Of a stretch of DNA of 64,000 bases, positions 1,545-58,122 are shown piece by piece. The notes below the pieces were generated by a model, which saw only the letters and a list, made by a program, of their open reading frames with translations, ran no database searches and had not been told where the DNA came from. The translations under genes were made by a program, and so were the position numbers. The stretch comes from an uncultured Alphaproteobacteria bacterium (GTDB lineage Bacteria; Pseudomonadota; Alphaproteobacteria; M2410). The DNA lies in the NCBI GenBank assembly GCA_965603015.1, contig CBFDBJ010000004.1, positions 5,933 through 69,932 of the forward strand. Reading direction: 5' to 3'. The first letter of the stretch is position 1. Each line of letters begins with the position of its first letter.

Positions 1545-3353
1545 TTGTATGTTTTGTCCATGCAAAATGAACTCTTTGACAAAGACCCTTTATGGGATCT
1601 GTCGGCTCTCTATCCAACGATGGACAGTCCGAAAATTCGTGAAGATCTTGAGCACGCCTCACAGTGGGCCGATGACTTTTGTAGCCGCTTTGAGGGCAAG
1701 CTTGCTGTGCTTCTGGGGTCTGCCGATGGCCCGGCGCAGCTCGGAGCCGCGCTGCAGGAATACAATGATCTGGGTGAACTGGCGGATCGTCCCTCGGTCT
1801 ATTCCTTCCTGGTTCATGCCTGTGCCGGGGATGACGCCGCGGTTGGCAAGTTTTACGGAGCGACCCGCGAAGCGGTCACAGCGATTTACTCCAAAACACT
1901 GTTCTTTGCACTGGAGCTTAATTCGCTTGCAGACGAGGTGCTGGACAAAGCCTGGTGCGATCCGAAGGTTGCCGAGTATCGTCCATGGATCGAAGCCATT
2001 CGGGCCGAGCGCCCGTGGCAATTGTCGACGGATCTGGAGCGCTTGCTGCATGACAAGAGCCTGACCGGGAGCCAGGCCTGGAACCGTCTCTTTGATCAGC
2101 TCATGGTATCGCTTCGGTTTGATATTGGTAATGAACGGCTGACCAGCGAAGAGGCTTTTGCCCGGCTTGCAGACGCAAAGACCGAGACTCGCAAACAGGC
2201 GGCGACGGGATTGTCGAAAACCTTTGCTGAAAACAAAACTGTCTTTTCCCATATCACCAATACACTGGCCAAGGACAAGGCCATTGAGACCGAGTGGCGC
2301 GGGCAGCCGGATATGGCGACGGCGCGGCACTCCTCCAATAGAGTTGAAGCGGAGGTTGTCGAAGCGCTGACAGCGACGGTCAAGGCATCCTATGCCGATA
2401 CCGCGCATCGCTACTATGCGCTCAAAGCCAAATGGCTCGGCGTGGACGCGCTGGATTTCTGGGACCGCAATGCGCCGCTTCCAGGATCTGATGATCACCT
2501 TATCCCCTGGACGGAGGCAAAGGACATTGTGCTGACAGCCTTCGGCGGGTTTGAACCGAAGATGGCCGATATTGCGCGGCGCTTCTTTGAGGAAAACTGG
2601 ATTGATGCGCCAGCCCGGTCAGGCAAGACCGGCGGTGCGTTTTCCCATCCGTCGGTGCCGAGCGCGCATCCTTATGTGCTGGTCAATTACCTCGGCAAGC
2701 CGCGCGATGTGGCAACGCTGGCTCATGAGCTGGGCCACGGCGTTCATCAGTATCTGGCGGCGCCGCGCGGTAACATTCTGGCCGACACGCCGTTGACACT
2801 GGCGGAGACGGCCAGCGTCTTTGGTGAGATGTTGACGTTTCAGTCGCTCCTGGAGCGCGCCAGTGATGCAGCCTCGCGCAAGCGGCTGATTGCCGGCAAG
2901 GTTGAGGACATGCTCAACACTGTTGTACGTCAGATCGCCTTTTATGATTTTGAGCGCCGTATTCACGCCGCGCGTCTGGACGGCGAGCTGACGGCGGATG
3001 AAATTGGCGCAATCTGGCTCGACGTTCAGCGTGAGAGCCTCGGACCTTCGGTCAAGATGAACCCGGGCTATGAGACCTGGTGGTGCTATATCCCGCATTT
3101 TCTGCATACACCGTTTTATGTCTATGCCTACGCGTTTGGTGAATGTCTGGTGAACTCGCTCTACGCGGTCTATCAGCGTGAACCGGACGGCTTTCAGGAG
3201 AAATATCTGACCATGCTGGCCGCCGGGGGTACCCTGCGCCATAAGGAGCTGCTGGCACCGTTCGGTCTTGATGCCTCAAAACCTGATTTCTGGCAGGAAG
3301 GCATGTCGGTGATTTCCGGGTTTATCGACCAGCTGGAAGCGATGGAGGGGTGA
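1545..3353 (+). CDS. pepF: Oligoendopeptidase F family (M3B) metallopeptidase
   Basis: 602 aa with the HELGHGVHQY zinc HEXXH motif and M3-family length and architecture. Confidence 0.8.
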   Translation: MYVLSMQNELFDKDPLWDLSALYPTMDSPKIREDLEHASQWADDFCSRFEGKLAVLLGSADGPAQLGAALQEYNDLGELADRPSVYSFLVHACAGDDAAVGKFYGATREAVTAIYSKTLFFALELNSLADEVLDKAWCDPKVAEYRPWIEAIRAERPWQLSTDLERLLHDKSLTGSQAWNRLFDQLMVSLRFDIGNERLTSEEAFARLADAKTETRKQAATGLSKTFAENKTVFSHITNTLAKDKAIETEWRGQPDMATARHSSNRVEAEVVEALTATVKASYADTAHRYYALKAKWLGVDALDFWDRNAPLPGSDDHLIPWTEAKDIVLTAFGGFEPKMADIARRFFEENWIDAPARSGKTGGAFSHPSVPSAHPYVLVNYLGKPRDVATLAHELGHGVHQYLAAPRGNILADTPLTLAETASVFGEMLTFQSLLERASDAASRKRLIAGKVEDMLNTVVRQIAFYDFERRIHAARLDGELTADEIGAIWLDVQRESLGPSVKMNPGYETWWCYIPHFLHTPFYVYAYAFGECLVNSLYAVYQREPDGFQEKYLTMLAAGGTLRHKELLAPFGLDASKPDFWQEGMSVISGFIDQLEAMEG

Positions 3354-3418
3354 AACCGGCCCGCGAGCCAGGCTCAAACCCCTTGGCAAATGACCCGGCG
3401 TGGCTTAACCCAGTCCTC

Positions 3419-4402
3419 ATGAGTAATGACAGAGAAAAATTTGAGGCGCAGTGGCCCGATCTCGGCGAGGCCGTTTTCACCCTGGCGCCCTTTCAGGGGG
3501 CGAGGCCGCCGGCACCGCAATGGTTTGTCAAAGCTCTGGCAGACAAGCCTGAAGAACACTTCATTGAGGTTGACGGCGTGCAGATCCAGTATCTGCGTTG
3601 GGGCGACCGGGCAAAACCGGGCCTCATTCTGTCCCACGGCAACGGTGCCCATGCCCATTGGTGGGCCTTTATCGCACCTTATCTCGCGCAGGAGTACAAT
3701 GTAGCGGCTCTCAGCTTTTCCGGGATGGGGGATAGCCAGGAGCGCAACAGCTACTCCCTTGAAGACTACGCGCGGGAGCAAATTGCGGTCTGTGAACATT
3801 CCGGCATGTTTGAGAATGACGAGCCGCCGATTATCGTAGCGCACTCTTTCGGCGGCTTTGCCACCATGGTGACCGGTGCGCTCTATGGCGACCGTCTTGC
3901 CGGCGTGATTATTGTCGACAGCCCGATTAATCCTGACCGGGACGGGGGGCCGCCGGATCGTGAGGGGCGGCCGCACCGGATCTACCCGACGCTGGCAGCA
4001 GCGCTGGCGCGGTTCCGTCTTGCACCGCCGCAGACCTGCGAAAATGCCTATATTGTCGATTACATCGCCCGCAACTCTCTTAAAGAAGTTGAGGGCGGCT
4101 GGACCTGGAAGTTTGATCCACTGATCTGGCAGCGTTTTGAAATCGGAGATCGGGCTCAAAGGCTCAAGGAGATCTCCTGCCGCCTTGCCATCATGCGGGG
4201 CGAACGCTCGCTGATTTTTCCGCCCGAGATTGGCGACTATATGTTTGAACTTCTGGGCAAGAATGTTCCGGTCATCGAAATTCCCGAGGCTCAGCACCAT
4301 ATCATGCTGGATCAGCCGCTGGCCTTTGTTGCGGCCCTGAGAGCCTTGCTGGGCGACTGGAACCACTCAAAACCGAATCGAAAAGGTCCTGTGTCCAGCT
4401 GA
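3419..4402 (+). CDS. Alpha/beta-fold hydrolase
   Basis: HGNGAHAHWW oxyanion region, AHSFGG nucleophile elbow (GxSxG) and a C-terminal His. Alternative GTG start at 3350 overlaps the pepF stop (GTGA). Confidence 0.7.
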   Translation: MSNDREKFEAQWPDLGEAVFTLAPFQGARPPAPQWFVKALADKPEEHFIEVDGVQIQYLRWGDRAKPGLILSHGNGAHAHWWAFIAPYLAQEYNVAALSFSGMGDSQERNSYSLEDYAREQIAVCEHSGMFENDEPPIIVAHSFGGFATMVTGALYGDRLAGVIIVDSPINPDRDGGPPDREGRPHRIYPTLAAALARFRLAPPQTCENAYIVDYIARNSLKEVEGGWTWKFDPLIWQRFEIGDRAQRLKEISCRLAIMRGERSLIFPPEIGDYMFELLGKNVPVIEIPEAQHHIMLDQPLAFVAALRALLGDWNHSKPNRKGPVSS

Positions 4403-13473: not shown

Positions 13474-14793
13474 TTATGACTTCAACGGGTGCAACACGAC
13501 CTGCATATCGGTGATGCCCATGACGAAGCAGGAATGAAGGTGTTTGGTTTCTCCAACGACTTCCACTTTGTCAAAGCGGTTCATAATTTCTTCCCAGAGA
13601 ATTCTGAGCTGCATTTCGCCAACCCGATTGCCCATGCAGCGGTGAATACCGAAACCGAAGGATACATGGTGACGGGCTCTGGCCCGATCAATCAGAAACT
13701 CACTTGCACGGTCGATCACCTCATCATCACGATTGCCAGAGATGTACCACATGATGACCTTGTCGCCTTTTTTGATCTGCTTGCCACCCAGTTCGATGTC
13801 TTCCAGAGCGGTGCGACGCATGTGCCCGAGGGGCGTAACCCAGCGAATGATTTCGGAAACCATATTGGGGATCAGGTCCGGGTTGGCTCTGAGCTTGTCA
13901 TATTCTGCCGGGTTTTGGTTCAGGGCCAGGACGCCGCCGGAAATCGAGTTGCGGGTCGTATCATTACCGCCGACGATGAGCAGGATCAGGTTGCCGAGGA
14001 ACTCCATCGGATCGTTGATCATCTCCGAGGTGTCCGGATTTGTAGCCAGCAGCGAAATCAAATCACTTGAGCCCTGATTTTCGGTTCTGTTCTGCCACTT
14101 TTCCATGAAGTAATGCAGACATTCCATGAGCTCTTCGCGGCGAACGTCCTCGCTGACAATTGTTCCATCGGCCAGGGCCTCTTCCTCTGAAATGGCTGTC
14201 GCCACATCCGACCAGCGGATCAGCTTGTGTCGATCTTCCTGGGGCACATCAAAGAGCGTCGCCAGGGTCATCGCTGTGAGCTCAACAGAGACTTTTTCAA
14301 CCCAGTTGAAGGGTTCGCCAACGGGAAGACCGTCCAGAATTTTTCCAACCCGCTCGCGAATTGTACTTTCAAGTTTCGCCAGGTTCATCGGCGCTACAGC
14401 CGGCGTGACAGATTTTCTCTGCACATCGTGTTTTGGTTGATCCATGGCGATGAAGTTCCTGAAATCAAAGTCAGGATCCGGATCGACGACAGTGATCGTT
14501 TTGTCCGAGGAAAAAACCTTGTGGTTGGTGTCAACGGCGACGATGTCGTTGAATTTCGTGACCGACCAGAACGGCCCGAACTCACCGTCCTTACAATAGT
14601 GAACCGGATCTTCCTTGCGCAGCCGTTCAAAATACTCAAAGTGCTTTTGGGCTTCGAAGATATAACTATCGCTCATGTTGATGTCTTCCAGAGCAATGTC
14701 ATAGGCCGAGGGCACATTGTCTACGGAGCCAAGGTTGGCAAACTCCCGATTGCGGTTTGAAAGGTCAGCGTCGGGGGGCGTTATATCCGTCAT
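13474..14793 (-). CDS. Cytochrome P450 of the CYP153 (alkane/terminal hydroxylase) family, paralogue 1
   Basis: Heme loop HHVSFGFGIHRCMGNRVGEMQLRILWEEI, I-helix LLIVGGNDTTRNSISGGVLALNQ, EIIRWVTPLGHMRRTALEDIEL and N-terminal FEYFERLRKEDPVHYCKDGEFGPFWSVTKFNDIVAVDTNHKVFSS all match the CYP153A sequences I recall. Start set at MTDIT with AGAGGA upstream. Confidence 0.85.
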   Translation of the reverse strand: MTDITPPDADLSNRNREFANLGSVDNVPSAYDIALEDINMSDSYIFEAQKHFEYFERLRKEDPVHYCKDGEFGPFWSVTKFNDIVAVDTNHKVFSSDKTITVVDPDPDFDFRNFIAMDQPKHDVQRKSVTPAVAPMNLAKLESTIRERVGKILDGLPVGEPFNWVEKVSVELTAMTLATLFDVPQEDRHKLIRWSDVATAISEEEALADGTIVSEDVRREELMECLHYFMEKWQNRTENQGSSDLISLLATNPDTSEMINDPMEFLGNLILLIVGGNDTTRNSISGGVLALNQNPAEYDKLRANPDLIPNMVSEIIRWVTPLGHMRRTALEDIELGGKQIKKGDKVIMWYISGNRDDEVIDRASEFLIDRARARHHVSFGFGIHRCMGNRVGEMQLRILWEEIMNRFDKVEVVGETKHLHSCFVMGITDMQVVLHPLKS

Positions 14794-14917
14794 CTTTTTT
14801 CCTCTTTTGTAAAACTGTGTGCCGAGCTGAGCGTCGATAACGCTGTTCGGGCCAATCGTTATCGTGATCCGGCACATATTGACGGGTCATGAAAACCGAT
14901 CAGGCCAGATTGTTGTA

Positions 14918-16186
14918 TCAGGATTTTAACGGGTGCAGCTTGACCATCATTTCGGTAATGCCCATGACAAAGTTTGAACGCAGACGTCCAGGCTCACCGA
15001 TAACCTCGACCTTTTCGAAGCGCTTCAGGATTTCTTCCCAAAGGATCCGCAACTGCATCTCGCCAACACGGTTGCCCATGCAGCGGTGAATGCCGAAGCC
15101 GAAGGAGAGATGATGACGCGCCTTGTCACGGTCGATGATGAATTCGTTGGCGCGGTCGATGACTTCGTCATCGCGGTTGCCGGAAATGTACCACATGACG
15201 ACCCGGTCACCTTTTTTGATTTGCTTGCCGTTTAACTCGGTATCTTCAAGAGCGGTGCGGCGCATGTGGCCCAGCGGCGTGACCCAGCGAATGATTTCTG
15301 ACACCATATTGGGGATAACCTCGGGGTTGGCACGCAGCTTGTCATATTCTGCCGGGTTCTGGTTGAGCGCCAGGACGCCGCCGGAAATCGAGTTGCGGGT
15401 CGTGTCGTTGCCGCCGACAATGAGCAGCATCAGATTGCCAAGGAATTCGAGCGGATCATTGGACATTTCCATTGTGTCGGGATTGGTCGCAAGCAGTGAG
15501 ATGAAGTCGGTGCCTTCATAGTTTTCGCCGCGGTCGCCCCACAGTTTCATGAAATATTCGAGACATTCCATCAGCTCTTTCTTGCGCTCTTCTTCGTTGA
15601 CGATGGAACCGTCAGCACCGGTTTGATCCGGGCTCGATGTCGTTACATCCGACCACCAGGTCAACTTGCGTCTGTCTTCCCAGGGAAAGTCAAACAGTAC
15701 GGCCAGCATTCGGGTCGTCAGCTCAATCGAGACCTGGTCGACCCAGTCAAAACTTTCACCAACGGGAAGACTGTCAAGAATCTCACAAACATTCTCGCGA
15801 ATGAGCGCCTCCAGTTTTGCCAGATTGACAGGCGCAACAGCGGGCGTGACAACTTTTCTTTGAACGTCATGTTTTGGCTGGTCCATGGCGATGAACATGG
15901 GCGGATTGAAGTCAGGGTCCGCATCGCCGATCACGATGGTCTTGTCAGAAGAGAAGACCTTGTGATTGGTATCGACAGCCACAATGTCGTTGAATTTTGT
16001 AATCGACCAATAGGGGCCGAACTCGCTGTCCTTGCAATAATGGACCGGGTCCTCCTTGCGCAGCCGTTCAAAATACTCAAAGTGCTGCTGGGTTTGAAAG
16101 AGCAAGCCATCACTGACGTCAATATCTTCCAGTGGTACGTCATAGGCACTTGGTGGTCTGGTGTTCTGGTCGTGGGCCACGGTCAT
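14918..16186 (-). CDS. Cytochrome P450 of the CYP153 family, paralogue 2
   Basis: Shares ~80% of residues with paralogue 1 and carries the same heme-binding, I-helix and EXXR motifs. Confidence 0.85.
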   Translation of the reverse strand: MTVAHDQNTRPPSAYDVPLEDIDVSDGLLFQTQQHFEYFERLRKEDPVHYCKDSEFGPYWSITKFNDIVAVDTNHKVFSSDKTIVIGDADPDFNPPMFIAMDQPKHDVQRKVVTPAVAPVNLAKLEALIRENVCEILDSLPVGESFDWVDQVSIELTTRMLAVLFDFPWEDRRKLTWWSDVTTSSPDQTGADGSIVNEEERKKELMECLEYFMKLWGDRGENYEGTDFISLLATNPDTMEMSNDPLEFLGNLMLLIVGGNDTTRNSISGGVLALNQNPAEYDKLRANPEVIPNMVSEIIRWVTPLGHMRRTALEDTELNGKQIKKGDRVVMWYISGNRDDEVIDRANEFIIDRDKARHHLSFGFGIHRCMGNRVGEMQLRILWEEILKRFEKVEVIGEPGRLRSNFVMGITEMMVKLHPLKS

Positions 16187-16215
16187 GGATCTTGCTCCCC
16201 TTTAGAGTTCAACTA

Positions 16216-16536
16216 TCAGAATTGGGCAATCGGCAGACGGACGACAAGCCCGTCAAGGTCGTCAGTCACCTTGATTTGACAGGCAAGGCGGCTGGTTTCT
16301 TCGGCGGCTTCGGCGAAATCCAGCATGGTCACTTCCATGTCCGTTTTGGTGCCGGTTTTCGACTGCCATTCAGGGTCGACGTAAATGTGGCAGGTGGCGC
16401 AGGCGCAGGCCCCGCCGCAATCCGCGTCGATTCCTGGTACAAGATTGTTCACTGCGCCTTCCATCAGGGAAAGCCCGACGGCGACTTCGACTTTATGTTC
16501 GCTTCCGTTGTTCTCAATGTAGGTAACGCGTGGCAT
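16216..16536 (-). CDS. [2Fe-2S] ferredoxin of the putidaredoxin/adrenodoxin type
   Basis: 106 aa with cluster ligands [11 protein letters not shown]...LACQ. Confidence 0.85.
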
Positions 16537-16681
16537 TCAGCCCTCCCTTTTTGCGTAGTATGAGTACGTATTGCGAACTGTAATCAGTAAATCCCGCAGG
16601 TCAAGTGTGGAATTTGTCTAATCTGGAGGTCGGTCGAAGGTCAGGCCCTCTGGTGGGCGCGAAAGCCTCAGGCCTTCAACC

Positions 16682-17953
16682 TCAGGCTTTCAGGGGGTGA
16701 AGCCGGACGGGCAGTTCAGTGATCCCCATGACGAAGTTGGAGCGCAGGCGGGTGGGTTCGCCGACGACTTCGACCTTTTCAAAGCGCTTCAGGATTTCCT
16801 CCCACAGGATGCGGAGCTGCATTTCACCGACACGGTTGCCCAGGCAGCGGTGAATGCCAAAGCCGAACGAGAGGTGATGGCGCGCCCTGGCACGATCAAT
16901 CAGGAATTCATCGGGGCGATCAATAGCCTCCTCATCGCGGTTGCCCGAGATATACCACATGACCACCTTGTCACCCTTTTTGATCAGCTTGCCGCCGAGC
17001 TCATAGTCCTCGAGCGCGGTGCGCCGCATGTGGGCGAGCGGTGTGACCCAGCGAATGATTTCAGGGACCATGTTGGGAATGATATCGGGGTTGGCGCGCA
17101 GCTTGTCATATTCCTTTGGGAACTGATTGAGGGCGAGGAGACCGCCGGAAATCGAGTTGCGCGTCGTGTCGTTGCCGCCGACAATCAGCAGGATCAAATT
17201 GCCAAGAAACTCGAGCGGGTCCTTTGTTAGATCCTTCGTGTCGGGATTGGTGGCAAGCAGGGAAATGAAATCAGTGCCCTGATAGTTCTCGCCGCGAGAG
17301 GCCCAGAGATTTTTGAAATAATCGATGCACTCGAGCAGTTCCTTCTTGCGCCCTTCTTCGGATATGAAGGCAGCATCCGTGCCGCTTGATTCTGGCCTTG
17401 AGGTCGCAACATCTGACCAGCGCGGCAGCATGCGGCGATCTTCCCAGGGGAAGTCAAACAGGGTTGCCAGCATCTGGGTGGTCAGTTCGATTGAGACCCG
17501 GTCGACCCAGTCGAAGGTTTCGCCGACCGGCAAATCGTCGAGGATTGTGCAGACGCGTGTCCGAATGAGCGCTTCCAGTTGTGCCAGATTGACCGGCGCA
17601 ACGGCCGGCGTAGCGGCTTTTCTCTGCACATCGTGGACGGGGGGATCGGAAGCAATGAAGCTGGAGGTTTGAAATTCGGGGTCGGGGTCTCCGATGACAA
17701 TGGCGGGCTCGGAGGAAAAGACCTTGTGATTGGTATCGACCGCGACGATGTCATCGAATTTCGTGATCGACCAGAACGGCCCGAAGGCGCTCTCGCTGCA
17801 GAAATGAACAGGATCTTCCTTGCGGAGCCGTTTGAAATAATCCCAGTGCCGTTGATTTTGAAAGAGATGGCTGTCGCTGACATCAAGAGTGTCCAGCGGG
17901 AGGTTCCAGGGGCCTGATAATTGATCGGCTTTGTGATCGTCGGCAAGGCTCAT
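16682..17953 (-). CDS. Cytochrome P450 of the CYP153 family, paralogue 3
   Basis: HLSFGFGIHRCLGNRVGEMQLRILWEEILKRF, LLIVGGNDTTRNSISGGLLALNQ and EDPVHFCSESAFGPFWSITKFDDIVAVDTNHKVFSS. Confidence 0.85.
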   Translation of the reverse strand: MSLADDHKADQLSGPWNLPLDTLDVSDSHLFQNQRHWDYFKRLRKEDPVHFCSESAFGPFWSITKFDDIVAVDTNHKVFSSEPAIVIGDPDPEFQTSSFIASDPPVHDVQRKAATPAVAPVNLAQLEALIRTRVCTILDDLPVGETFDWVDRVSIELTTQMLATLFDFPWEDRRMLPRWSDVATSRPESSGTDAAFISEEGRKKELLECIDYFKNLWASRGENYQGTDFISLLATNPDTKDLTKDPLEFLGNLILLIVGGNDTTRNSISGGLLALNQFPKEYDKLRANPDIIPNMVPEIIRWVTPLAHMRRTALEDYELGGKLIKKGDKVVMWYISGNRDEEAIDRPDEFLIDRARARHHLSFGFGIHRCLGNRVGEMQLRILWEEILKRFEKVEVVGEPTRLRSNFVMGITELPVRLHPLKA

Positions 17954-47163: not shown

Positions 47164-47273
47164 TGTCATCCCGGGCTTGACCCGGGATCTCGGGGCAGGA
47201 TCGATGACATAAGGTACATCGTTATGCTTTTCGAGATGGTGCCCTGAGGCCCCGGCTCTAGGCCGGGGCGACA
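47164..47273. repeat. Structured intergenic repeat, copy 1 (REP/MITE-like, two hairpins)
   Basis: TGTCATCCCGGGC-loop-GACCCGGGATCT ... GTGCCCTGAGGCCCCGG-loop-CCGGGGCGACA; the same ends recur at 55082..55200 and 56440..56559. Confidence 0.8.
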
Positions 47274-47296
47274 AGTTATTTTGTTACTAAATCTTC

Positions 47297-51469: not shown

Positions 51470-51670
51470 GGCTGATGGCGGGCTCTGCCCGATTTGTCAG
51501 GAAGCCCTTTCCCTGAGGCCTTAATCTTCTTCTCGGGAGCTGTCCCTTGTTTGGACCGTGGTCCTTACGAAACGGCGCCCACCTGCTGAGTGCAGGCCCA
51601 CGAGGAACTCTCGCTTCCAACGGTTACGGTGGACCCGCCACTCCTCTCCATACCGCAGGCTCAAACGACG
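51470..51670 (+). ncRNA. ssrS: Candidate 6S RNA (ssrS); the ends are approximate
   Basis: A ~210-nt non-coding gap between zapA and 5-formyltetrahydrofolate cyclo-ligase. This is the conserved zapA-ssrS-ygfA synteny, and the GC-rich sequence has paired-arm potential. It has not been verified against a covariance model. Confidence 0.4.
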
Positions 51671-51678
51671 GGAAATTA

Positions 51679-52251
51679 ATGGCTGGTCCGGATCTTCTGA
51701 AAGATGAAACAAGACGGGCTCTGCGAGAAGCGCGAGCCCTTCTGTCAGATGAAGATCACAAACGCATGTCAGACCTGGCGATCCGGCGGTTTCTTGCCAG
51801 TATTCCTTATAAAGATTTCCAACGGATCGCCCTTTACTGGCCGATCGGGGCGGAGCTCAATCCGCTTGGACTTGCCCGGAGTCCAGAGCTGGCGGCTCAT
51901 ACTTTTGCCCTTCCCGTTATTGAGAGCGAAGAGAGCCCGCTGGGGTTTCGGCGTTGGGCTGCCGGGGATGAGGTTGTTGCGGCTGACTTCGGCGGTTCGG
52001 TCCCGCGTTCCACGGAGGCCCTCGTCCCGGACCTCGTTGTTGTGCCGCTTGTCGGATTTGACCGGCGGGGACACCGGCTCGGGCAGGGCGGCGGGTTTTA
52101 TGACCGAACGCTGGCGGAATTGCGCACCAATAGCAAAATTCTGGCCGTGGGGCTGGCCTTTTGCGTCCAGGAATGCTTGAACATCCCGCACGAAGACCAT
52201 GATGAGCGGCTTGACCGGGTTGTTACCGAGCAAGAGGTCATCGAGTTTTAA
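51679..52251 (+). CDS. ygfA: 5-formyltetrahydrofolate cyclo-ligase
   Basis: RIALYWPIGAELNP...VVPLVGFDRRGHRLGQGGGFYDR. Confidence 0.8.
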   Translation: MAGPDLLKDETRRALREARALLSDEDHKRMSDLAIRRFLASIPYKDFQRIALYWPIGAELNPLGLARSPELAAHTFALPVIESEESPLGFRRWAAGDEVVAADFGGSVPRSTEALVPDLVVVPLVGFDRRGHRLGQGGGFYDRTLAELRTNSKILAVGLAFCVQECLNIPHEDHDERLDRVVTEQEVIEF

Positions 52252-52308
52252 AGCTGCGCGGCGCATCGGGTGCCGCGTTTTTTGATAAATGTCAGGGCTA
52301 TTGATTAC

Positions 52309-53121
52309 ATGCGTATCCTGTTTCTGGGCGATATTGTTGGAAAGACCGGCCGCGACGGCGTGGTCAGGCTGTTGCCAGGTCTGCGCGAGACGCTGGCCCT
52401 CGACTTCGTCATTGTGAACGGGGAAAACGCGGCGCACGGCTTCGGCATCACGGCCAAGATCTGTGATGAACTGTTTGAGTGCGGCGTAGATGTCATCAGT
52501 ACAGGGAACCACATCTGGGATCAAAAAGAGGCCCTGAGTTTTATTGAACGCGAGGATCGGCTGCTGCGGCCGGTCAATTTTCCCAAAGGGACACCGGGTA
52601 AAGGCGCGGGCCTCTACCAGACGGCGAGCGGGGGCAGCGTTCTTGTGGTCAATGTAATGGGGCGCCTGTTCATGGATCCGCTGGATGATCCCTTTGCGGC
52701 GGTTGAGCGCGAACTTGAAGCGTGTCCGCTCGGCGCGGCGGCGGATGCCATCGTCATTGATGTCCATGCGGAAACGACGTCGGAGAAAAACGCCATGGGG
52801 CATTTTGCCGATGGCAGCGCCAGTCTTGTGGTGGGAACCCACACCCATATCCCGACGGCTGATACGCGTATCCTTGCGGGCGGGACGGCCTATCAGACCG
52901 ATGCGGGTATGTGCGGCGACTATGACAGCGTGATCGGTATGCAGAAGGACGAGGCGGTGGCGCGGTTTGTGCGAAAGTACTCGCTCGAGCGATTGCGGCC
53001 CGCTGATGGTCAGGCGAGCGTTTGCGGTGTTGTTGTTGAAACCGGACCGGATGGTCTGGCAGAGCGTGTGGCGCCGGTTCGTGTTGGCGGGTCTCTCACG
53101 CAGATTATGCCGGATTGGTAG
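52309..53121 (+). CDS. YmdB-family metallophosphoesterase (TIGR00282)
   Basis: MRILFLGDIVGKTGRD...VIVNGENAAHGFGIT... Confidence 0.8.
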   Translation: MRILFLGDIVGKTGRDGVVRLLPGLRETLALDFVIVNGENAAHGFGITAKICDELFECGVDVISTGNHIWDQKEALSFIEREDRLLRPVNFPKGTPGKGAGLYQTASGGSVLVVNVMGRLFMDPLDDPFAAVERELEACPLGAAADAIVIDVHAETTSEKNAMGHFADGSASLVVGTHTHIPTADTRILAGGTAYQTDAGMCGDYDSVIGMQKDEAVARFVRKYSLERLRPADGQASVCGVVVETGPDGLAERVAPVRVGGSLTQIMPDW

Positions 53122-53131
53122 GACAAAGCTC

Positions 53132-54229
53132 ATGCCTCAGACAGAACATGAACTTGAACGCAAGGTTCTGGATCTTGAGAAATACGCTCACCTTGATTCT
53201 CTGGAAGGTGTGACGCTTGTTGAGCCGAAACTTCCAAAGCTCACCAGTGTAGCAGGCATACGGCGGATTTTTCCCGGAACGCTGACGGCGATTGTTATTG
53301 CTCTGGCGGCAAGCTTCCTTTCTTCCCATTATGGCGCGCCGGTGATGTTCTTTGCACTGCTGATCGGGCTTGCATTTGATTTTCTGTCACAAGAAAAAAC
53401 CACGCAGCCGGGCATTGAGTTTTCCGCACGCACCGTGCTGCGCTTCGGCGTTGCCTTGCTCGGTGCGCGTATTACCTTCAGTCAAATACTGGATCTGGGC
53501 ATCGGCAATGTGCTGGCGGTGATCAGCGCCGTCATTTTCACGATCCTGTGCGGGTCGATCCTGGCGCGGCTGATGGGGTTGTCGAGGGAGCAGGGGCTTC
53601 TGTCCGGGGGTGCGGTGGCGATCTGCGGCGCCTCGGCGGCGCTGGCGATTTCCTCGGTGATGCCAAAAAGCAAGGATCTGGAGCGCAACACTATTTTCAC
53701 TGTGGTGTCGGTCACGACGCTCTCGACTATTGCGATGATCGCCTACCCGATTTTCACAGGGCTCATGGGCTTTTCGGATCATGAGGCCGGGATTTTTCTG
53801 GGTGGCACAATCCACGATGTCGCGCAGGTCGTCGGTGCCGGTTTTTCGGTCAGCCAGGAGGCGGGCGATACATCAACCATCGTCAAGCTCCTGCGGGTCA
53901 CCATGCTGCTGCCTGTGGTTCTGGTTTTCACCATGCTGTTCCGCAATGATAAAGGAGCCGATGGCGAACGAGCCACGACGGTGCCGACCTTTCTGATCGC
54001 CTTTGCTGCGCTGGTTGCCATCAATTCGGCGGGGGTCGTCCCCGATGTCATCATGGGCACGCTCAGCGATGTCTCGCGCTGGTGCCTCATTACCGCGATT
54101 GCGGCGCTTGGCATGAAGACATCCTTCAAGGCGCTGGCCCTTGTCGGCTGGCGACCGGTCCTGCTGGTTATGGCCGAAACGCTGCTGATGGCGGGGTTTG
54201 TATTGGCCTATCTGCTTGTGCTGGCGTAA
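53132..54229 (+). CDS. YeiH/UPF0324-family membrane protein (putative sulfate exporter)
   Basis: ~365-aa polytopic protein; start at MPQTEH with AGGA upstream. Confidence 0.7.
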   Translation: MPQTEHELERKVLDLEKYAHLDSLEGVTLVEPKLPKLTSVAGIRRIFPGTLTAIVIALAASFLSSHYGAPVMFFALLIGLAFDFLSQEKTTQPGIEFSARTVLRFGVALLGARITFSQILDLGIGNVLAVISAVIFTILCGSILARLMGLSREQGLLSGGAVAICGASAALAISSVMPKSKDLERNTIFTVVSVTTLSTIAMIAYPIFTGLMGFSDHEAGIFLGGTIHDVAQVVGAGFSVSQEAGDTSTIVKLLRVTMLLPVVLVFTMLFRNDKGADGERATTVPTFLIAFAALVAINSAGVVPDVIMGTLSDVSRWCLITAIAALGMKTSFKALALVGWRPVLLVMAETLLMAGFVLAYLLVLA

Positions 54230-54322
54230 GCGCCGCAAAAAACCTTGAAAATCTCGCCATTTTCGTTAGAAGCCTTGGCTTGAACCACAAAAATGTGACG
54301 CGTAATCGGGTCGGAGGAAATC

Positions 54323-55072
54323 ATGGCTGGACATTCCCAGTTTGCAAACATCATGCACCGCAAGGGTGCGCAGGACAAAAAGCGGGCGAAGATCTTCTCC
54401 AAGCTGGCCAAGGAAATTACTGTGGCGGCCAAGATGGGCGCGCCTGATCCGGATATGAACCCAAGGCTGCGCCTCGCTATCCTGCAGGCTCGCAAGGCCA
54501 ATGTGCCCAAGGACAATATCCAGCGCGCGATCAAGAAATCTCAAGCGGTTGGTGAAGCCAACTTTGACGAAATGCGCTACGAGGGCTTTGGTCCCGGCGG
54601 CATTGGCGTGATTGTTGAGGCGTTGACCGACAACAAGAACCGCACGGCTGGCGATGTGCGCGCAACGTTCACGAAATATGGCGGCAACCTTGGTGAAAAC
54701 GGCTCGGTTGGCTTTATGTTCGATCGGGTCGGGGCCATTGAGTTCAAGCCGGAGGTCGGCGACGCCGACGCGATCATGGAGGCGGCAATCGAGGCGGGCG
54801 CGGACGATTGCGAGAGCGATGACGATAGCCACACGATCTATTGCGAGCCTGAGGCGCTGCATGAGGTCAAGGAAGCGCTCGAGACTGGTCTGGGCGAAGC
54901 CGAAAGCGCCAAGCTGATCTGGAAGCCGCAGAATACGATCGAGCTCGACATCGACAAGGCCCAGACCCTGATGAAGCTCTATGAGGCGCTTGAAGACAAT
55001 GACGACGTTCAAAGCGTCTATGCCAACTTCGAGATCTCTGCGGAAGTTATGGCGCAGCTGGCTGCACAGTAG
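54323..55072 (+). CDS. yebC: YebC/PmpR-family transcriptional regulator
   Basis: [32 protein letters not shown]. Confidence 0.9.
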
Positions 55073-55081
55073 CTGCCAAGA

Positions 55082-55200
55082 TGTCATCCCGGGCGAGCAT
55101 AGCGAGACCCGGGATCTCTGACCCCCGATCTTGCGACCCGGTGAAATCCTGCATCAGGCGCCTTCGTGCCCTGAGGCCCCGGATCAAGTCCGGGGCGACA
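55082..55200. repeat. Structured intergenic repeat, copy 2
   Basis: Same termini and hairpins as copy 1, with a longer first loop (14 nt). Confidence 0.8.
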
Positions 55201-55307
55201 ATAATTGATATGTTCTTCTTCTGTTTCCTTTTTGGGACGAATCTGAGATGGTCAGCCGTTGGTTGAACAATTCATCGGATGAGCCTGTGCGCGCTCCTGT
55301 CAGAGTT

Positions 55308-55814
55308 ATGGGAATTGATCCCGGACTTCGGTTTTGTGGTTGGGGCATTATTGAGTCTGATGGCTCGAATCTGCGCCATGTGGCCAACGGGACGGTGACA
55401 TCGGATGCGGCGCTGGATCTGTCCGAGCGGCTGTTGCAGCTTCACGTCGGGCTCAGTGATGTGATCCGCAGTTTTGCGCCCGATGAGGCCGCTGTTGAGC
55501 AAGCCTTCGTCAATCGGGACGGGGCCGGGACCCTGAAGCTCGGGCAAGCGCGCGGCATTGCGGTGCTGGTGCCGGCGCAGGCGGGGCTACGGGTGGCGGA
55601 ATATGCGCCCAACAAGGTCAAGAAATCGGTTGTCGGGGCGGGTCATGCGGGCAAGGATCAGGTCACGGCGATGGTGCGGATGCTGCTGCCGTCATGTGAT
55701 ATTCATTCTGCGGATGCGGCCGACGCGCTGGCCATTGCGATTTGCCATGCGCATCATCGCGGCGCTGACGACAAGGTGGCGATGGCACTGCTCAAAGAGG
55801 TAGGCGGAGTATGA
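55308..55814 (+). CDS. ruvC: Holliday junction resolvase
   Basis: [15 protein letters not shown]...; start uncertain (GTG further upstream is possible); 4-nt overlap with ruvA. Confidence 0.85.
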
Positions 55815-56425
55815 TTGGCAAACTGAAGGGTCTGGTTGATTCCGTCGGCGATGACTGGGTCATCATTGATGTCGGCGGGGTTGGTTATCATGTGCAATGC
55901 GCGTCGCGGACGCTGGCGTCGTTGCCGGGAATTGGCGAGGCGACCTCGCTGGCCATCGAGACCCATGTGCGCGAGGACATGATCCGTCTCTATGGATTTG
56001 CATCGGGTCTCGAGCGCGACTGGTTTCGTTTGTTGCAAAGTGTGCAGGGGGTTGGCGCGAAAGTGGCACTGGCGATCCTGAGCACGCTGACGACAGAGGA
56101 GTTAACCAGCGCCATCGTCTTTCAGGACAAGACAATCGTGGGGCGGGCGTCGGGCGTTGGCCCCAAGCTGGCTGTGCGGATCGTCAATGAATTGAAAGAC
56201 AAGGCGCCAACGTCCGGTGTTGTTATTGAAGGCGGTGCACCGTCTGCCGGTGATGCTCCGCAAACAGATCATGGGTTGCAAATGGATGCGGTATCGGCGC
56301 TGGTTAATCTGGGCTATCAACAGGCGCAGGCCGCCGGCGCTGTCAGAGGGGCTTCGGGAAATCTTGGCGACGGGGCCGGGCTTGATGATTTGATTAAAGA
56401 AGGGCTGAAGCAGCTTGCGAGTTGA
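55811..56425 (+). CDS. ruvA: Holliday junction branch-migration protein RuvA
   Basis: [28 protein letters not shown]. Confidence 0.9.
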
Positions 56426-56439
56426 GCTGGAAATTTCGG

Positions 56440-56559
56440 TGTCATCCCGGGCAAGCGCAGCGCGACCCGGGATCTGAGGGCAAGATGTTGCAACGCGCTG
56501 AAAACAGAATGAGAAGCAAGGGCCGTGCCCTGAGATCCCGGATCAGGTCCGGGACGACA
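56440..56559. repeat. Structured intergenic repeat, copy 3 (between ruvA and ruvB)
   Basis: Same termini; the second hairpin is TCCCGGA-loop-TCCGGGA, against CCCCGGA/TCCGGGG in copy 2. Confidence 0.8.
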
Positions 56560-56585
56560 TGTTGAGAGATAAAGGTAAAGCCTTC

Positions 56586-57641
56586 ATGGCTGACGCACAG
56601 GAAGACAGGCTCCTTGACGGGGCGCCGAAGATTGAAGATGCAGGCGAGACCAGCCTTCGTCCGCTCAGTCTTGCGGATTTCACCGGCCAGGCGCGGGTGC
56701 GCGAAAACCTTGAGATTTTCATCAAGGCAGCGCGGGCGCGCGGTGATGCGCTGGACCATGTGCTGCTTGCCGGACCGCCGGGGCTTGGCAAGACAACGCT
56801 GGCGCAAATTGTGGCGCGGGAACTCGGGGTTAATTTTCGGGCCACATCCGGTCCGGTGATTGCAAAGGCCGGCGACCTTGCGGCACTTCTGACCAACCTG
56901 CAGAAAAATGATGTGCTCTTCATTGACGAGATCCACCGGCTCAGCCCGGCGGTTGAGGAAATCCTCTATCCGGCGATGGAAGACTTTCAGCTGGATTTGA
57001 TCATTGGTGAGGGGCCGGCGGCACGATCTGTACGGATCGATCTGGCGCCCTTCACGCTGGTCGGGGCAACGACGCGGTCGGGCATGATCACGACGCCGCT
57101 CAGGGACCGGTTCGGTATTCCATTGCGGCTCAATTTTTATGAATATGACGAGCTGAAATCGATTATCACGCGCGGCGCGTCGGTGCTGGGCATCGAGATC
57201 GATGAAGGCGGCGCCAGCGAAATTGCGCATCGCTCGCGCGGCACACCGCGCATCGCCGGACGCCTCCTCAGGCGCGTGCGGGACTTTGCTGCCGTGTCCG
57301 GGCACGGCGTGATCGATCAAAAAATTGCCGATGCGGCGCTTGGCCGTCTTGAGGTCGACAAGCGCGGTCTGGATCAGATGGACATACGCTATCTTTCCAT
57401 GATTGCGGGCAACTTCGGCGGCGGCCCGGTCGGGGCGGAGACCATTGCCGCGGCACTTAGCGAGCCCCGGGATGCGATCGAGGAAATCATCGAGCCCTAT
57501 TTGATCCAGCAGGGCTTTGTGCAGCGCACCCCGAGGGGGCGTCTGCTGACCGGCCAGGCCTTCAAACATCTGGGCCTTGATGTCCCCACCGCGGTTCGGG
57601 AACAAGGTCAGCTGTTTTCCGAGGGGAACGACGATGAGTGA
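56586..57641 (+). CDS. ruvB: Holliday junction branch-migration ATPase RuvB
   Basis: AAA+ Walker [10 protein letters not shown], sensor regions and a RuvB C-terminal winged helix. Confidence 0.9.
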
Positions 57642-58122
57642 TCAGGATTTTCAGCCCGCCCAGCAGCCGCCCTTGCCGGAAAGCGACATCAATGGTTATC
57701 TGCGCGATGGCGAGCACCATCAGCCGGTCCGGGTCTATTACGAGGACACCGATGCCTCGGGCATTGTGTTTTACGGCAATTATGCGCGGTTTATCGAGCG
57801 CGGCCGGACCAATTTTCTGCGCCTTCTGGGTGTCCATCACCAGGATCTGTTTGCCCTTGAAGAGCCGATTGCCTTCACGGTGACCCGGCTGGAGATGGAT
57901 TATCTGCGGCCCGCACGGCTTGATGACACGCTGATGGTCAAGAGCCGCTACACAAAAGTGACGGCGGCGCGGATCTTCGGGCTGCAGTCGGTCTGGCGCG
58001 GCGAGGAAGAGCTGGTCCGGGCGAGAATCCAGGCCGCCTGCATCAATCTCGACGGCAAGGCGCGCCGGATCCCCGGATATGTGCGAGACCTGATGGCACC
58101 GCATCTCTCGGATGAAGCCTGA
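57634..58122 (+). CDS. ybgC: Tol-Pal-associated acyl-CoA thioesterase (4HBT fold)
   Basis: [30 protein letters not shown]; start overlaps the ruvB stop by 8 nt. Confidence 0.8.

Follow-up and report, generated by a model that had tools for sequence, protein, structure and literature searches.

The window analysed here, a stretch of 64 kb of DNA, contains three near-palindromic repeats of about 119 nt, each made up of two inverted hairpins with a TGTC tag and an 8-bp stem, on either side of a spacer of 60–61 nt. Copy 1 (47164–47273) is an HH dimer in the spacer between gap and pgk, both on the minus strand. Copy 2 (55082–55200), an HH dimer of the form TGTC...GACA with its tags pointing outward, is found between yebC and ruvC, and copy 3 (56440–56559), also an HH dimer, fills the spacer between ruvA and ruvB. 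The identities of yebC, ruvC, ruvA, ruvB, pgk and gap were confirmed by Pfam; yebC (54323..55072), of the TACO1/YebC family, ruvC (55309..55814), ruvA (55811..56425) and ruvB (56586..57641) are all on the plus strand. The yebC stop codon ends at 55072, and copy 2 starts 9 nt past it. Copy 3 starts 14 nt past the ruvA stop (56425), and its end is 27 nt short of the ruvB ATG at 56586. Both copies are thus at the positions given for them in a preliminary description of this DNA. Copies 1 and 3 are located within gene pairs that are tightly linked in relatives.

Some mechanical ORF starts fall in or next to the elements and were corrected. The end of copy 3 creates an in-frame ATG at 56559, which is not used as the ruvB start by relatives; their start (MADAQE...) places it at 56586. 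For pgk, the start moves from 47274 to 47144, and for ruvC it should probably be moved from the mechanical position 55248 to the ATG at 55309 (MGIDPG...), which is favoured by relatives and by the Pfam domain boundary. A LexA-box-like motif, GTTC-N7-GTTT (55212..55226, plus strand), is kept in all relatives and lies downstream of copy 2, so that copy 2 is placed outside the ruvC operator/promoter region; the alphaproteobacterial LexA consensus is GTTC-N7-GTTC. The 16-mer GTCATCCCGGGCRAGC occurs twice exactly in the window and, with up to 3 mismatches, seven times against 2.0 expected, a count that no shuffle reached. The “bracketing” of ruvC and ruvA by two copies 1.36 kb apart was considered and set aside, as a rough estimate for 3 copies among ~60 spacers gives a chance of ~0.2. 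Elsewhere in the window, the sole Rfam match is a 6S RNA at 51479–51639.

All six units share the TGTC tag, a stem of 8 bp and a C after the stem, with the tags outward. The loop is CTTGA, CTAGA or CCTGA (5 nt) in four units and is extended to 14 nt in two of the hairpin-1 units. In copy 1, unit 1 (47165–47188, plus strand) reads GTC-ATCCCGGG-CTTGA-CCCGGGAT and unit 2 (47249–47272, minus strand) reads GTC-GCCCCGGC-CTAGA-GCCGGGGC. Hairpin 1 of copy 2 (55083..55115, plus strand) has the same stem arms, GTC-ATCCCGGG and CCCGGGAT, around the 14-nt extended loop CGAGCATAGCGAGA, followed by the tail CTC, and its hairpin 2 (55176..55199, minus strand) reads GTC-GCCCCGGA-CTTGA-TCCGGGGC, also with tail CTC; the 60-nt spacer between them (55116..55175) has a right end, GTGCCCTGAG, common to copies 1 and 3, and an unrelated interior. 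Copy 3 comprises unit 1 (56441..56473, plus strand), which reads GTC-ATCCCGGG-CAAGCGCAGCGCGA-CCCGGGAT with tail CTG, a spacer of 61 nt (56474..56534) with complementary ends, CTGAGGGCA and TGCCCTGAG, and unit 2 (56535..56558, minus strand), which reads GTC-GTCCCGGA-CCTGA-TCCGGGAT with tail CTC. The stem of this last unit is formed by seven Watson-Crick pairs and one G.T, its first pair being G.T on the minus strand and A.C on the mRNA strand. Since the two units of each element face each other with their tags outward, each DNA strand carries one “forward” hairpin. The spacers measure 60, 60 and 61 nt, with interiors no more alike than shuffled sequence, and this combination of equal lengths and unrelated interiors is unexplained by simple copy-and-paste.

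Stem changes within the window and across the family

On the plus strand, hairpin 2 reads GCCCCGGA-TCAAG-TCCGGGGC in copy 2 and ATCCCGGA-TCAGG-TCCGGGAC in copy 3. The second stem pair changes from C-G to T-A and is compensated, whereas the outermost pair, G-C in copy 2, is A.C in copy 3 (G.T on the minus strand) and is uncompensated. The compensatory change reported in the preliminary description, which had described the first and last bases of a 7-bp stem as changing together, is thus real at the second pair of a stem that has 8 pairs, and does not extend to the outermost one. Copy 1 contains a further compensated change, with C-G instead of A-T as the loop-closing pair. A single transition separates hairpin 2 of copy 3 from the commonest unit type, ATCCCGGA/TCCGGGAT, against three changes from hairpin 2 of copy 2, and the two hairpins look like different unit subtypes when their sequences are compared, not like parent and offspring. 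Because hairpin 2 of copy 3 is nearer to the commonest type and the inner spacers are unrelated, the “C>T with G>A” change is a comparison of two subtypes, and not a change that took place at the ruvA-ruvB locus.

As two or three copies give no statistic alone, covariation was evaluated on a larger set of copies, collected by anchoring on hairpin 1 only, and the partner hairpins were scored. These partners showed 69 compensated doubles, 75 single changes and 8 uncompensated doubles, and the compensated doubles compare with 20.2 ± 3.6 in shuffles, none of 5000 reaching 69. In a clean alignment of 27 units, six of the eight pairs change on both sides, with a covariation score of 0.415 against 0.176 ± 0.02 (0 of 500 shuffles reach 0.415). 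Such strong stem covariation across the family means that the hairpin is constrained. The proposal that selection acts on the folded hairpin, which an absence of excess compensatory changes in a larger set would have contradicted, is upheld by this excess. Strand-specific G.T wobble (12 versus 9, p = 0.66) does not separate a constraint on DNA from one on RNA. What the matched stem changes reflect is that the family as a whole needs to form the hairpin, and not that a regulator evolved for ruvB. Metagenomes were also scanned for subfamily copies with the pattern CCCGGGATCT-N(35-65)-GTGCCCTGAG, and none of the 91 loci with both anchors belonged to this repeat family; most of them are copies of a single unrelated repeat, probably an insect SINE derived from a tRNA, which shares both anchors by chance.

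Relatives and the ruvA-ruvB junction

Relatives were found by RuvA homology search and labelled L121–L126 and L218–L221. A ruvA-ruvB spacer of 160 nt is present only in the window and in L121, whose RuvA is 100% identical and whose copy 3 is identical. The spacer lacks the element and measures 26 nt in L218, L122 and L123 (RuvA 96 and 95% identical), 18 nt in L220 (88%), 14 nt in L124 and L125 (82%), 25 nt in L126 (81%) and 15 nt in L221 (73%), and L219 (90%) carries a different CGTC-REP dimer at this place, 13 nt past the ruvA stop. Copy 2, in turn, is missing from the yebC-ruvC spacer in L122, L123, L219, L124 and L125; this spacer is 236 nt in the window and 110 nt in L122. With the ruvA-ruvB element missing in relatives at 96, 95, 88, 82, 81 and 73% identity, and another dimer in the relative at 90%, this pattern of presence and absence makes copy 3 a recent and dispensable insertion, and not a conserved ruvB regulator. 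When flanking direct repeats were sought, no target-site duplication was found at the three window copies or at the L219 copy, and the flanks have diverged from the relatives such that no clean empty-site junction is readable. The window and L121 are 97.6% identical overall, and the 14 nt just upstream of copy 3 are strongly diverged; a footprint of cleavage and re-insertion was rejected here, since similar patches of difference inside genes indicate ordinary patchy divergence.

These comparisons bear directly on the suggestion that copy 3 is a cis-regulatory RNA structure of the ruvAB transcript, under selection for adjusting ruvB expression or the stability of the mRNA, which we regard as unlikely. 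The element does lie inside a co-directional gene cluster, its RNA fold reaches -60.5 kcal/mol (z = -5.8 versus shuffled sequence), and L219 has a dimer of its own in the same spacer. The short distances of copies 3 and 2 to the ruvA and yebC stops, 14 and 9 nt, can also be set beside E. coli, in which REPs located less than 16 nt from a stop codon lower translation of the preceding gene (Liang et al., 2015, as summarized in PMC12306157). However, the element is missing in six sets of relatives, including those with 95–96% RuvA identity, and the same units are also present in other, unrelated phyla and contexts. Rfam covariance models gave nothing on the elements even at E <= 10, the plus strand has no terminator-like U-tract, the ribosome-binding region of ruvB is unpaired in the centroid fold, and the outer pair of copy 3 hairpin 2 is an A.C mismatch on the very strand of the mRNA. 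The absence from relatives, the unrelated contexts, the comparison of subtypes behind the stem changes, and the binding of ssDNA and not RNA by SsnA, the nuclease discussed below, together leave unsupported the reading of the stem changes as a sign of function in the ruvAB transcript, as had originally been proposed.

Effects of the elements on mRNA are possible as by-products of insertion. When transcribed into the ruvCAB and yebC mRNAs, the elements would fold into stem-loops of high stability that lack a U-tract, and copy 3 would convert a ruvA-ruvB junction of 14–26 nt into a structured one of 160 nt. It may in this way uncouple the translation of ruvA and ruvB, and the elements may shield the mRNA upstream of them against 3' decay or hold up ribosomes that terminate on yebC or ruvA. 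A natural comparison is provided by strains about 95% identical in RuvA with and without an element in the ruvA-ruvB and yebC-ruvC spacers, which could be used to measure the effect of a CGTC-REP/SRM dimer on a polycistronic mRNA.

CGTC-tagged REPs and Ssn nucleases

The repeats around ruvC and ruvA belong to an already known and widespread family of paired DNA hairpins. It is very probable that the three repeats are HH dimers of CGTC/TGTC-tagged repetitive extragenic palindromes (REPs; NTS in Neisseria, generally Ssn-related motifs or SRM), recently inserted and non-autonomous, whose stems are kept by the family-wide need to form hairpins. Di Nocera and others defined CGTC REPs by a CGTC tag, often replaced by TGTC, a stem of 8–9 bp, a loop of 4–5 nt and a tail of 3 nt; HH dimers prevail, with spacers of 20–100 bp whose ends are often complementary, the location is near the 3' end of the preceding ORF, and no dedicated transposase was found (PMC3733652). 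In the window, the unpaired tag (CGTC, with TGTC or CCTC allowed) is TGTC in 6/6 units, the stem has 8 pairs in 6/6, and 3/3 elements have their tags outward and spacers within 20–100 bp. At the first two stem positions, A-T and T-A are found in the three hairpin-1 units (ATCCCGGG), hairpin 2 having GC in copies 1 and 2 and GT in copy 3. The GC-type stem is a variant within the range of the family, because GC-type stems flank an Ssn-like gene in Novosphingobium aromaticivorans. Extended loops of the 14-nt type are common in matches from Bosea, Bradyrhizobium and Blastochloris, and the tails in a wider sample are CCA (36), CCC (8) and CTC (7), the window units keeping the C after the stem. Exact matches to the hairpin GTCATCCCGGGC-N-CCCGGGATC are found at more than 120 genome loci, in many phyla and unrelated contexts, and after the hairpin there is usually an inverted partner whose tag is CGTC or TGTC and whose tail is CCA. 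Searching the literature in full text for the repeat sequence gave primers and unrelated matches only.

Hairpins of the same class are the substrate of SsnA, a small GIY-YIG nuclease of roughly 95 aa and the only partner demonstrated by experiment for this class. It binds and cuts NTS/SRM as ssDNA only, not as RNA or dsDNA, with the cut placed a few nucleotides 5' of the tag; SRMs are found on the flanks of ssn genes, and an IS-like origin was only hypothesised by Chenal and others (PMC11893778). The SRM string HGTCWYN(0-2)YYVSBRHN(0-5)WNVSBRGN(0-2)RNCYNB has 2 matches in the window against 0.44 expected, one of them clean (47164–47192, copy 1 hairpin 1) and a second one, in copy 2, that is out of register. 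The W of the string (A or T) is not matched by the hairpin-2 units, which begin with G, and N(0-5) is too short for the extended loops of two hairpin-1 units. No ssn homologue (cd10448 GIY-YIG) was found within the 64-kb window. Small GIY-YIG ORFs are located between inverted CGTC hairpins in two of the matching loci, L028 and L095, the protein of L028 being 56% identical to a Neisseria gonorrhoeae locus. Among homologues from plasmid/chromid records, 5/6 have tagged hairpins on both sides, including that of N. aromaticivorans, where units of the form GTC-GCCCCGTG-CTTGA-CACGGGGC resemble the hairpin-2 type of the window. In an all-against-all comparison of the ORFs adjoining units at 120 loci, mostly common housekeeping families were obtained and only the GIY-YIG pair was informative. 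The source organism presumably has a trans-acting partner of this kind. The embedded genes are the obvious lead on how CGTC REPs spread, a lead that is already published.

A unit consists of an unpaired GTC tag, a G+C-rich stem of 8 bp, a loop of 5 nt (or the extended 14 nt) and a C after the stem. The comparison with relatives suggests that the elements are non-autonomous, spread within genomes and landed recently in short spacers just past stop codons, at yebC|ruvC, ruvA|ruvB and gap|pgk. The constraint on the stem would act on the whole family, in which a unit must fold as an ssDNA hairpin with a fixed tag for a trans-acting partner in order to persist or spread. Beyond annotation, the significance of these elements is slight; their recognition avoids taking a mobile palindrome for a dedicated ruvB regulator.

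It is quite unlikely that the paired hairpins are functional marks, which together with a genome-encoded Ssn would cut ssDNA at the ruv boundaries, as NTS-gene-NTS in Neisseria, and limit allelic replacement of recombination genes, or which would set the RuvA:RuvB ratio by uncoupling translation. Were this the case, selection and not chance would account for the second, independent dimer of L219 and for the excess of REP insertions that has been reported in DNA-repair genes (PMC3733652). It is very unlikely that the elements are REPINs, that is, REP doublets mobilised by RAYT, an IS200-like Y1 transposase. The overall design is the same, with two inverted REP hairpins and a spacer, intergenic and without target-site duplication (PMC3116915, PMC3337134), but RAYT-associated REPs carry the tag GTAG, against TGTC in the window and (C/T)GTC in the family, and in the survey of Di Nocera and others (PMC3733652) CGTC units were not found flanking any RAYT gene. 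Alphaproteobacteria have few or no tnpA-Y1 homologues (PMC6006769), and the genes embedded between units in the loci examined are GIY-YIG, not Y1 transposase. An origin as MITEs, IS deletion derivatives that have terminal inverted repeats and depend on a DDE transposase for movement, has in its favour the imperfect inverted-repeat ends (TGTCATCCCGG / CCGGGxCGACA), the length of ~119 nt and a presence that varies between strains, but is hardly credible with no target-site duplication at any of four insertion sites (three window copies and L219), “inverted repeats” that each form a whole hairpin bearing a conserved unpaired tag, and unrelated copy interiors. Look-alike intrinsic terminators, suggested by G+C-rich stems just downstream of stop codons, are scarcely conceivable when no U-tract follows any stem on the plus strand, a terminator scan gives one site, on the minus strand and not above chance, and copies 1 and 3 sit inside gene pairs tightly linked in relatives.

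Comparison with known systems

As CGTC/TGTC-tagged REP dimers, the window elements can be compared with four systems. [quoted passage not shown] With the REPIN/RAYT system (Bertels and Rainey, 2011) they share the nature of non-autonomous REP doublets, mostly vertically inherited replicators within genomes, in which the hairpin is needed for ssDNA recognition; the differences are the GTAG tag and HUH Y1 transposase of that system against a GIY-YIG nuclease for the CGTC class, and the fact that CGTC units are not known to transpose.

Closer is the correspondence with the CGTC REPs of Di Nocera and others (2013, BMC Genomics 14:522), found mainly in Alphaproteobacteria. The window units depart from these in their tails, CTC or CTG where CCA is usual, in hairpin-2 units beginning with GC or GT where a start with AT is “almost invariable”, and in the 14-nt loops of two hairpin-1 units, a feature noted in that paper only for Bradyrhizobium and a few other taxa. 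They agree in the unpaired (C/T)GTC tag, the 8-bp stem, the 5-nt loop and the 3-nt tail beginning with C, in the inverted arrangement with tags outward around a 60-nt spacer with partly complementary ends, and in the location between co-directional genes, close to the upstream stop.

In the NTS/SRM and SsnA system (Chenal et al., 2025, Nat Commun 16:2388; Neisseria dRS3), the role demonstrated in Neisseria is the restriction of incoming transforming ssDNA. The core CGTCAT-stem-loop-stem-ATC is alike, homologous GIY-YIG genes are found between such hairpins in alphaproteobacterial records, and 6/6 window units keep both the GTC 5' of the stem, which matters for cleavage, and the C that follows the stem, the top base for binding.

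Anatomy and gene context of the paired-hairpin elements

The window carries three related elements of 110-120 nt: copy 1 (47164-47273) between gap and pgk, both on the minus strand, copy 2 (55082-55200) between yebC and ruvC, and copy 3 (56440-56559) between ruvA and ruvB. The identity of all six flanking genes was confirmed through Pfam. The coordinates and gene neighbours in the preliminary description were correct, as was the distance of 27 nt from the end of copy 3 to the ruvB ATG at 56586. Through a hairpin search, two inverted units were found in each of the three elements. In every unit T-GTC is followed by two complementary 8-nt arms around a loop and then by C-T-C/G, and the GTC tags face outward. 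Unit 1, on the plus strand, is GTC-ATCCCGGG-loop-CCCGGGAT in all copies, the loop being CTTGA in copy 1 and an extended 14-nt loop in copies 2 and 3. Unit 2, on the minus strand, reads GTC-GCCCCGGC-CTAGA-GCCGGGGC in copy 1, GTC-GCCCCGGA-CTTGA-TCCGGGGC in copy 2 and GTC-GTCCCGGA-CCTGA-TCCGGGAT in copy 3.

The spacers between the units (47189-47248, 60 nt; 55116-55175, 60 nt; 56474-56534, 61 nt, for copies 1, 2 and 3) share the right end GTGCCCTGAG, with a complementary left end in copies 1 and 3, while the mutual likeness of their interiors is not above that of shuffled sequence. Spacers of near-equal length with unrelated interiors are not explained by simple copy-and-paste of one master element. 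On either strand, as RNA or single-stranded DNA, the folds of copies 1 and 3 are much more stable than those of shuffles (z -3.9 to -6.6), and the advantage is less clear for copy 2 (z -1.4 to -2.7).

ORF starts called mechanically lie within the elements or beside them and make the genes too long: ruvB at 56559, where the end of copy 3 forms an in-frame ATG and the start differs from that of relatives, pgk at 47274 and probably ruvC at 55248. Relatives and domain boundaries point to starts at 56586, 47144 and 55309, respectively. Upstream of ruvC, at 55212-55226, lies GTTCTTCTTCTGTTT (GTTC-N7-GTTT), which is conserved in four related loci (L122, L219, L124 and L126) and resembles the alphaproteobacterial LexA box, and it suggests that ruvCAB belongs to the SOS regulon here. 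In every relative this motif is downstream of the place of copy 2; copy 2 therefore adjoins the end of yebC and is not part of the region that controls ruvC. Elsewhere, the window holds a 6S RNA at 51479-51639 (Rfam RF00013, 51.1 bits), upstream of a 5-FTHF cyclo-ligase / YmdB gene cluster, and three tandem paralogous segments at 13474-17861 (repeat families D1-D3; 1.44 and 1.76 kb apart, 68-79% identical), which probably represent a triplicated gene.

Stem covariation across the family

The preliminary description had taken a paired stem change between copies 2 and 3 as a sign of selection on the folded structure. The C-G to T-A double change in the second pair of hairpin 2 is real. The outermost pair of this hairpin is G-C in copy 2 and, in copy 3, A.C on the plus strand and G.T on the minus strand; in copy 1 the pair that closes the loop has also changed, again with compensation. 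Neither point is in the preliminary description. What separates copies 2 and 3 here is best taken as the difference between two unit subtypes: unit 2 of copy 3 is three changes apart from unit 2 of copy 2, and one transition from ATCCCGGA/TCCGGGAT, the most frequent partner type among the matches listed.

Further copies were collected by scanning one genome per species for the exact hairpin GTCATCCCGGGC-N(2-22)-CCCGGGATC, which returned at least 120 loci. The matches listed are from Alphaproteobacteria (Bosea, Bradyrhizobium, Sphingomonas, Devosia and others), from Betaproteobacteria (Ramlibacter) and from MAGs placed in several further phyla, and most have an inverted partner hairpin 30-120 nt downstream. 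Among these listed partners the tag is CGTC in 44/79 and TGTC in 25/79, the tail is CCA in 36/79, and CTTGA is the most frequent loop.

This larger set, anchored on unit 1 only, with partners accepted at up to 3 mismatches per arm regardless of pairing, upholds structural constraint on the stems at the level of the family. The 70 distinct partners among the matches listed contain 69 compensated doubles, 75 singles and 8 uncompensated doubles, against 20.2 +/- 3.6 compensated doubles after shuffling of the 3' arms (0/5000 shuffles reach 69), these being counts of sequences and not of independent events, from units of many genomes and not the window's own. When 27 units that have 5-nt loops, four of them from the window, are aligned without gaps, 96% of cells pair, both sides change in 6/8 pairs, and the covariation score is 0.415 versus 0.176 +/- 0.02 for shuffles (0/500 as high); the signal is lost on sliding the partner columns. 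Since covariation exceeds shuffles in both copy sets, the hairpin is constrained across the family. This constraint need not act on RNA. A test for strand-specific G.T wobble gave similar counts, 12 versus 9.

A scan of metagenome contigs for copies of the same subfamily (CCCGGGATCT...GTGCCCTGAG; 91 loci, L127-L217) mostly returned a single unrelated repeat, probably an insect SINE, whose 5' portion is tRNA-like (GGGGTAGCGTAGTGGTTAAGGCGCTGCGCTACTAGTCGGACGGTCCCGGGATCT...) and which shares both anchors by chance.

Variation at the ruv locus and local effects

Orthologous loci were fetched via RuvA homologues, and RuvA identity was measured to the window. Presence of the elements varies among close relatives. 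L121 (RuvA 100%) has a ruvA-ruvB spacer of 160 nt with the same element, without a single difference, and its copy 2 differs from that of the window at 3 positions. In L218 (96%) and in L122 and L123 (both 95%) the spacer is 26 nt and lacks the element, and it measures 18 nt in L220 (88%), 14 nt in L124 and L125 (82%), 25 nt in L126 (81%) and 15 nt in L221 (73%). L219 (90%) has a spacer of about 165 nt with a different dimer of CGTC-tagged repetitive extragenic palindromes (CGTC-REPs), at 2333-2454, which starts 13 nt past the ruvA stop and combines stems ATTCTCGA/TCGGGGAT and ATCCTCGG/CCGGGGAT with extended loops, CCA tails and complementary spacer ends. Measured to the ATG at 55309, the yebC-ruvC spacer of the window is 236 nt, versus 110 nt in L122, and the copy 2 element is absent from this spacer in L122, L123, L219, L124 and L125. 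To judge from these loci, copy 3 is not conserved in the ruv operon, and the simplest history would be a recent insertion in the lineage of the window and L121, with an independent one in that of L219. No target-site duplication was visible, the flanks having diverged beyond reading of the exact junction.

Other repeats occur at this locus. In L126 the yebC-ruvC spacer contains a long, almost perfect palindrome from another family (GGGGTCAGACCTTAACATCTTAAC...GTTAAGATGTTAAGGTCTGACCCC), at about 3335-3395, the position of copy 2 in the window. The ruvC-ruvA junction of L221 (2812-3000) is about 190 nt, versus a 4-nt overlap in the window, and contains an annotated ORF of 45 aa as well as short palindromic repeats of other kinds. 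Window positions 51811-58090 are 97.6% identical to L121, with differences concentrated in short stretches (such as 54924-54960, 55430-55474 and 57634-57691), a pattern that suggests recombination tracts between strains.

Selection of the structure for ruvB expression, which had been proposed earlier, is unsupported, copy 3 not being conserved in the operon, and the bracketing of ruvC-ruvA by copies is statistically unremarkable. Copy 3 makes the ruvA-ruvB junction 160 nt long in place of about 20 nt, a length that should abolish translational coupling, if any, between the two genes. In the centroid fold the ruvB ribosome-binding region is unpaired with copy 3 in place. In the mRNAs the elements would form additional stable stem-loops that lack U-tracts, and no terminator was predicted on their plus strand. 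Copies 2 and 3 start 9 and 14 nt past the upstream stop codon and, as Liang et al. (2015) are reported in PMC12306157, E. coli REPs less than 16 nt from a stop codon reduce translation of the upstream gene; therefore, any effect may fall on yebC and ruvA as much as on ruvB. A function of the dimers as Ssn-dependent boundaries on either side of recombination genes is improbable, as is a role in setting RuvA:RuvB stoichiometry.

Relation to CGTC-REPs and Ssn-type nucleases

The window elements gave no Rfam match, even at E <= 10. Di Nocera, De Gregorio and Rocco (PMC3733652) described CGTC-REPs, chiefly from Alphaproteobacteria, with a terminal CGTC, often replaced by TGTC, stems of 8-9 bp starting A-T then T-A, loops of 4-5 nt and 3-nt tails, mostly CCA. 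Dimers with tags outside (HH) predominate, with spacers of 20-100 bp whose ends are often complementary; the units lie between co-directional or convergent genes, near the stop codon of the upstream gene, and no transposase is dedicated to them (PMC3733652). The window elements agree in tag, stem length, dimer and location, and differ in their CTC or CTG tails, at stem positions 1 and 2 of unit 2 and in the extended loops of two units. They are new copies of a known kind, dimers of CGTC-REPs or Ssn-related motifs.

When ORFs adjoining the units were compared across the loci of the exact-hairpin scan (at least 120), a recurrent small protein was found tightly embedded between inverted units, a single-domain GIY-YIG protein of 94-95 aa in L028 and L095, its stand-alone gene lying between inverted CGTC-tagged hairpins (3593-3954 and 2270-2660, respectively). 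Stand-alone GIY-YIG genes with such hairpins on both sides are likewise present in L222, L223, L225, L226 and L227; the products from all these loci are 94-108 aa, and in L028, L223, L226 and L227 the gene lies where a dimer has its spacer. The L028 protein is 56% identical to that of a Neisseria gonorrhoeae locus. Tagged hairpins stand on both sides in 5/6 homologues from plasmid or chromid records (Azospirillum lipoferum, Rhizobium sp. CIAT894, N. gonorrhoeae, Novosphingobium aromaticivorans and Shinella), S. meliloti being the single exception. In Rhizobium, Novosphingobium and Shinella the gene takes the place of the spacer of a dimer. N. aromaticivorans, whose units read GTC-GCCCCGTG-CTTGA-CACGGGGC, shares the G-C start and the loop of window unit 2. 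No Ssn-type GIY-YIG protein is encoded in the 64-kb window.

Chenal and others described the Neisseria hairpin NTS, CGTCATTCCCGCGMAVGCGGGAATCYRG, which includes dRS3, the CGTC-1 of Di Nocera, and reported that NTS and the Ssn-related motifs of other bacteria are associated with ssnA, a 94-aa GIY-YIG gene that is often motif-flanked (Chenal et al., 2025; PMC11893778). SsnA binds the hairpin as single-stranded DNA only, not the reverse strand, double-stranded DNA or RNA, and cuts a few nt upstream of the tag; cleavage depends most on the three bases 5' of the stem, and binding on the C directly after it (PMC11893778). Both GTC and the post-stem C are kept in 6/6 window units. The stems would be kept since a unit must form a single-stranded DNA hairpin, with its tag, for recognition by an Ssn-like cognate protein, and such a hairpin may also be needed for the unit to persist or spread; the elements may have reached their spacers by some ssDNA-based or recombination-based route. 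The association of the GIY-YIG gene with this hairpin class is already known from the literature, and the genes lying between inverted hairpins in these loci have the same arrangement as the published NTS-ssnA-NTS of Neisseria.
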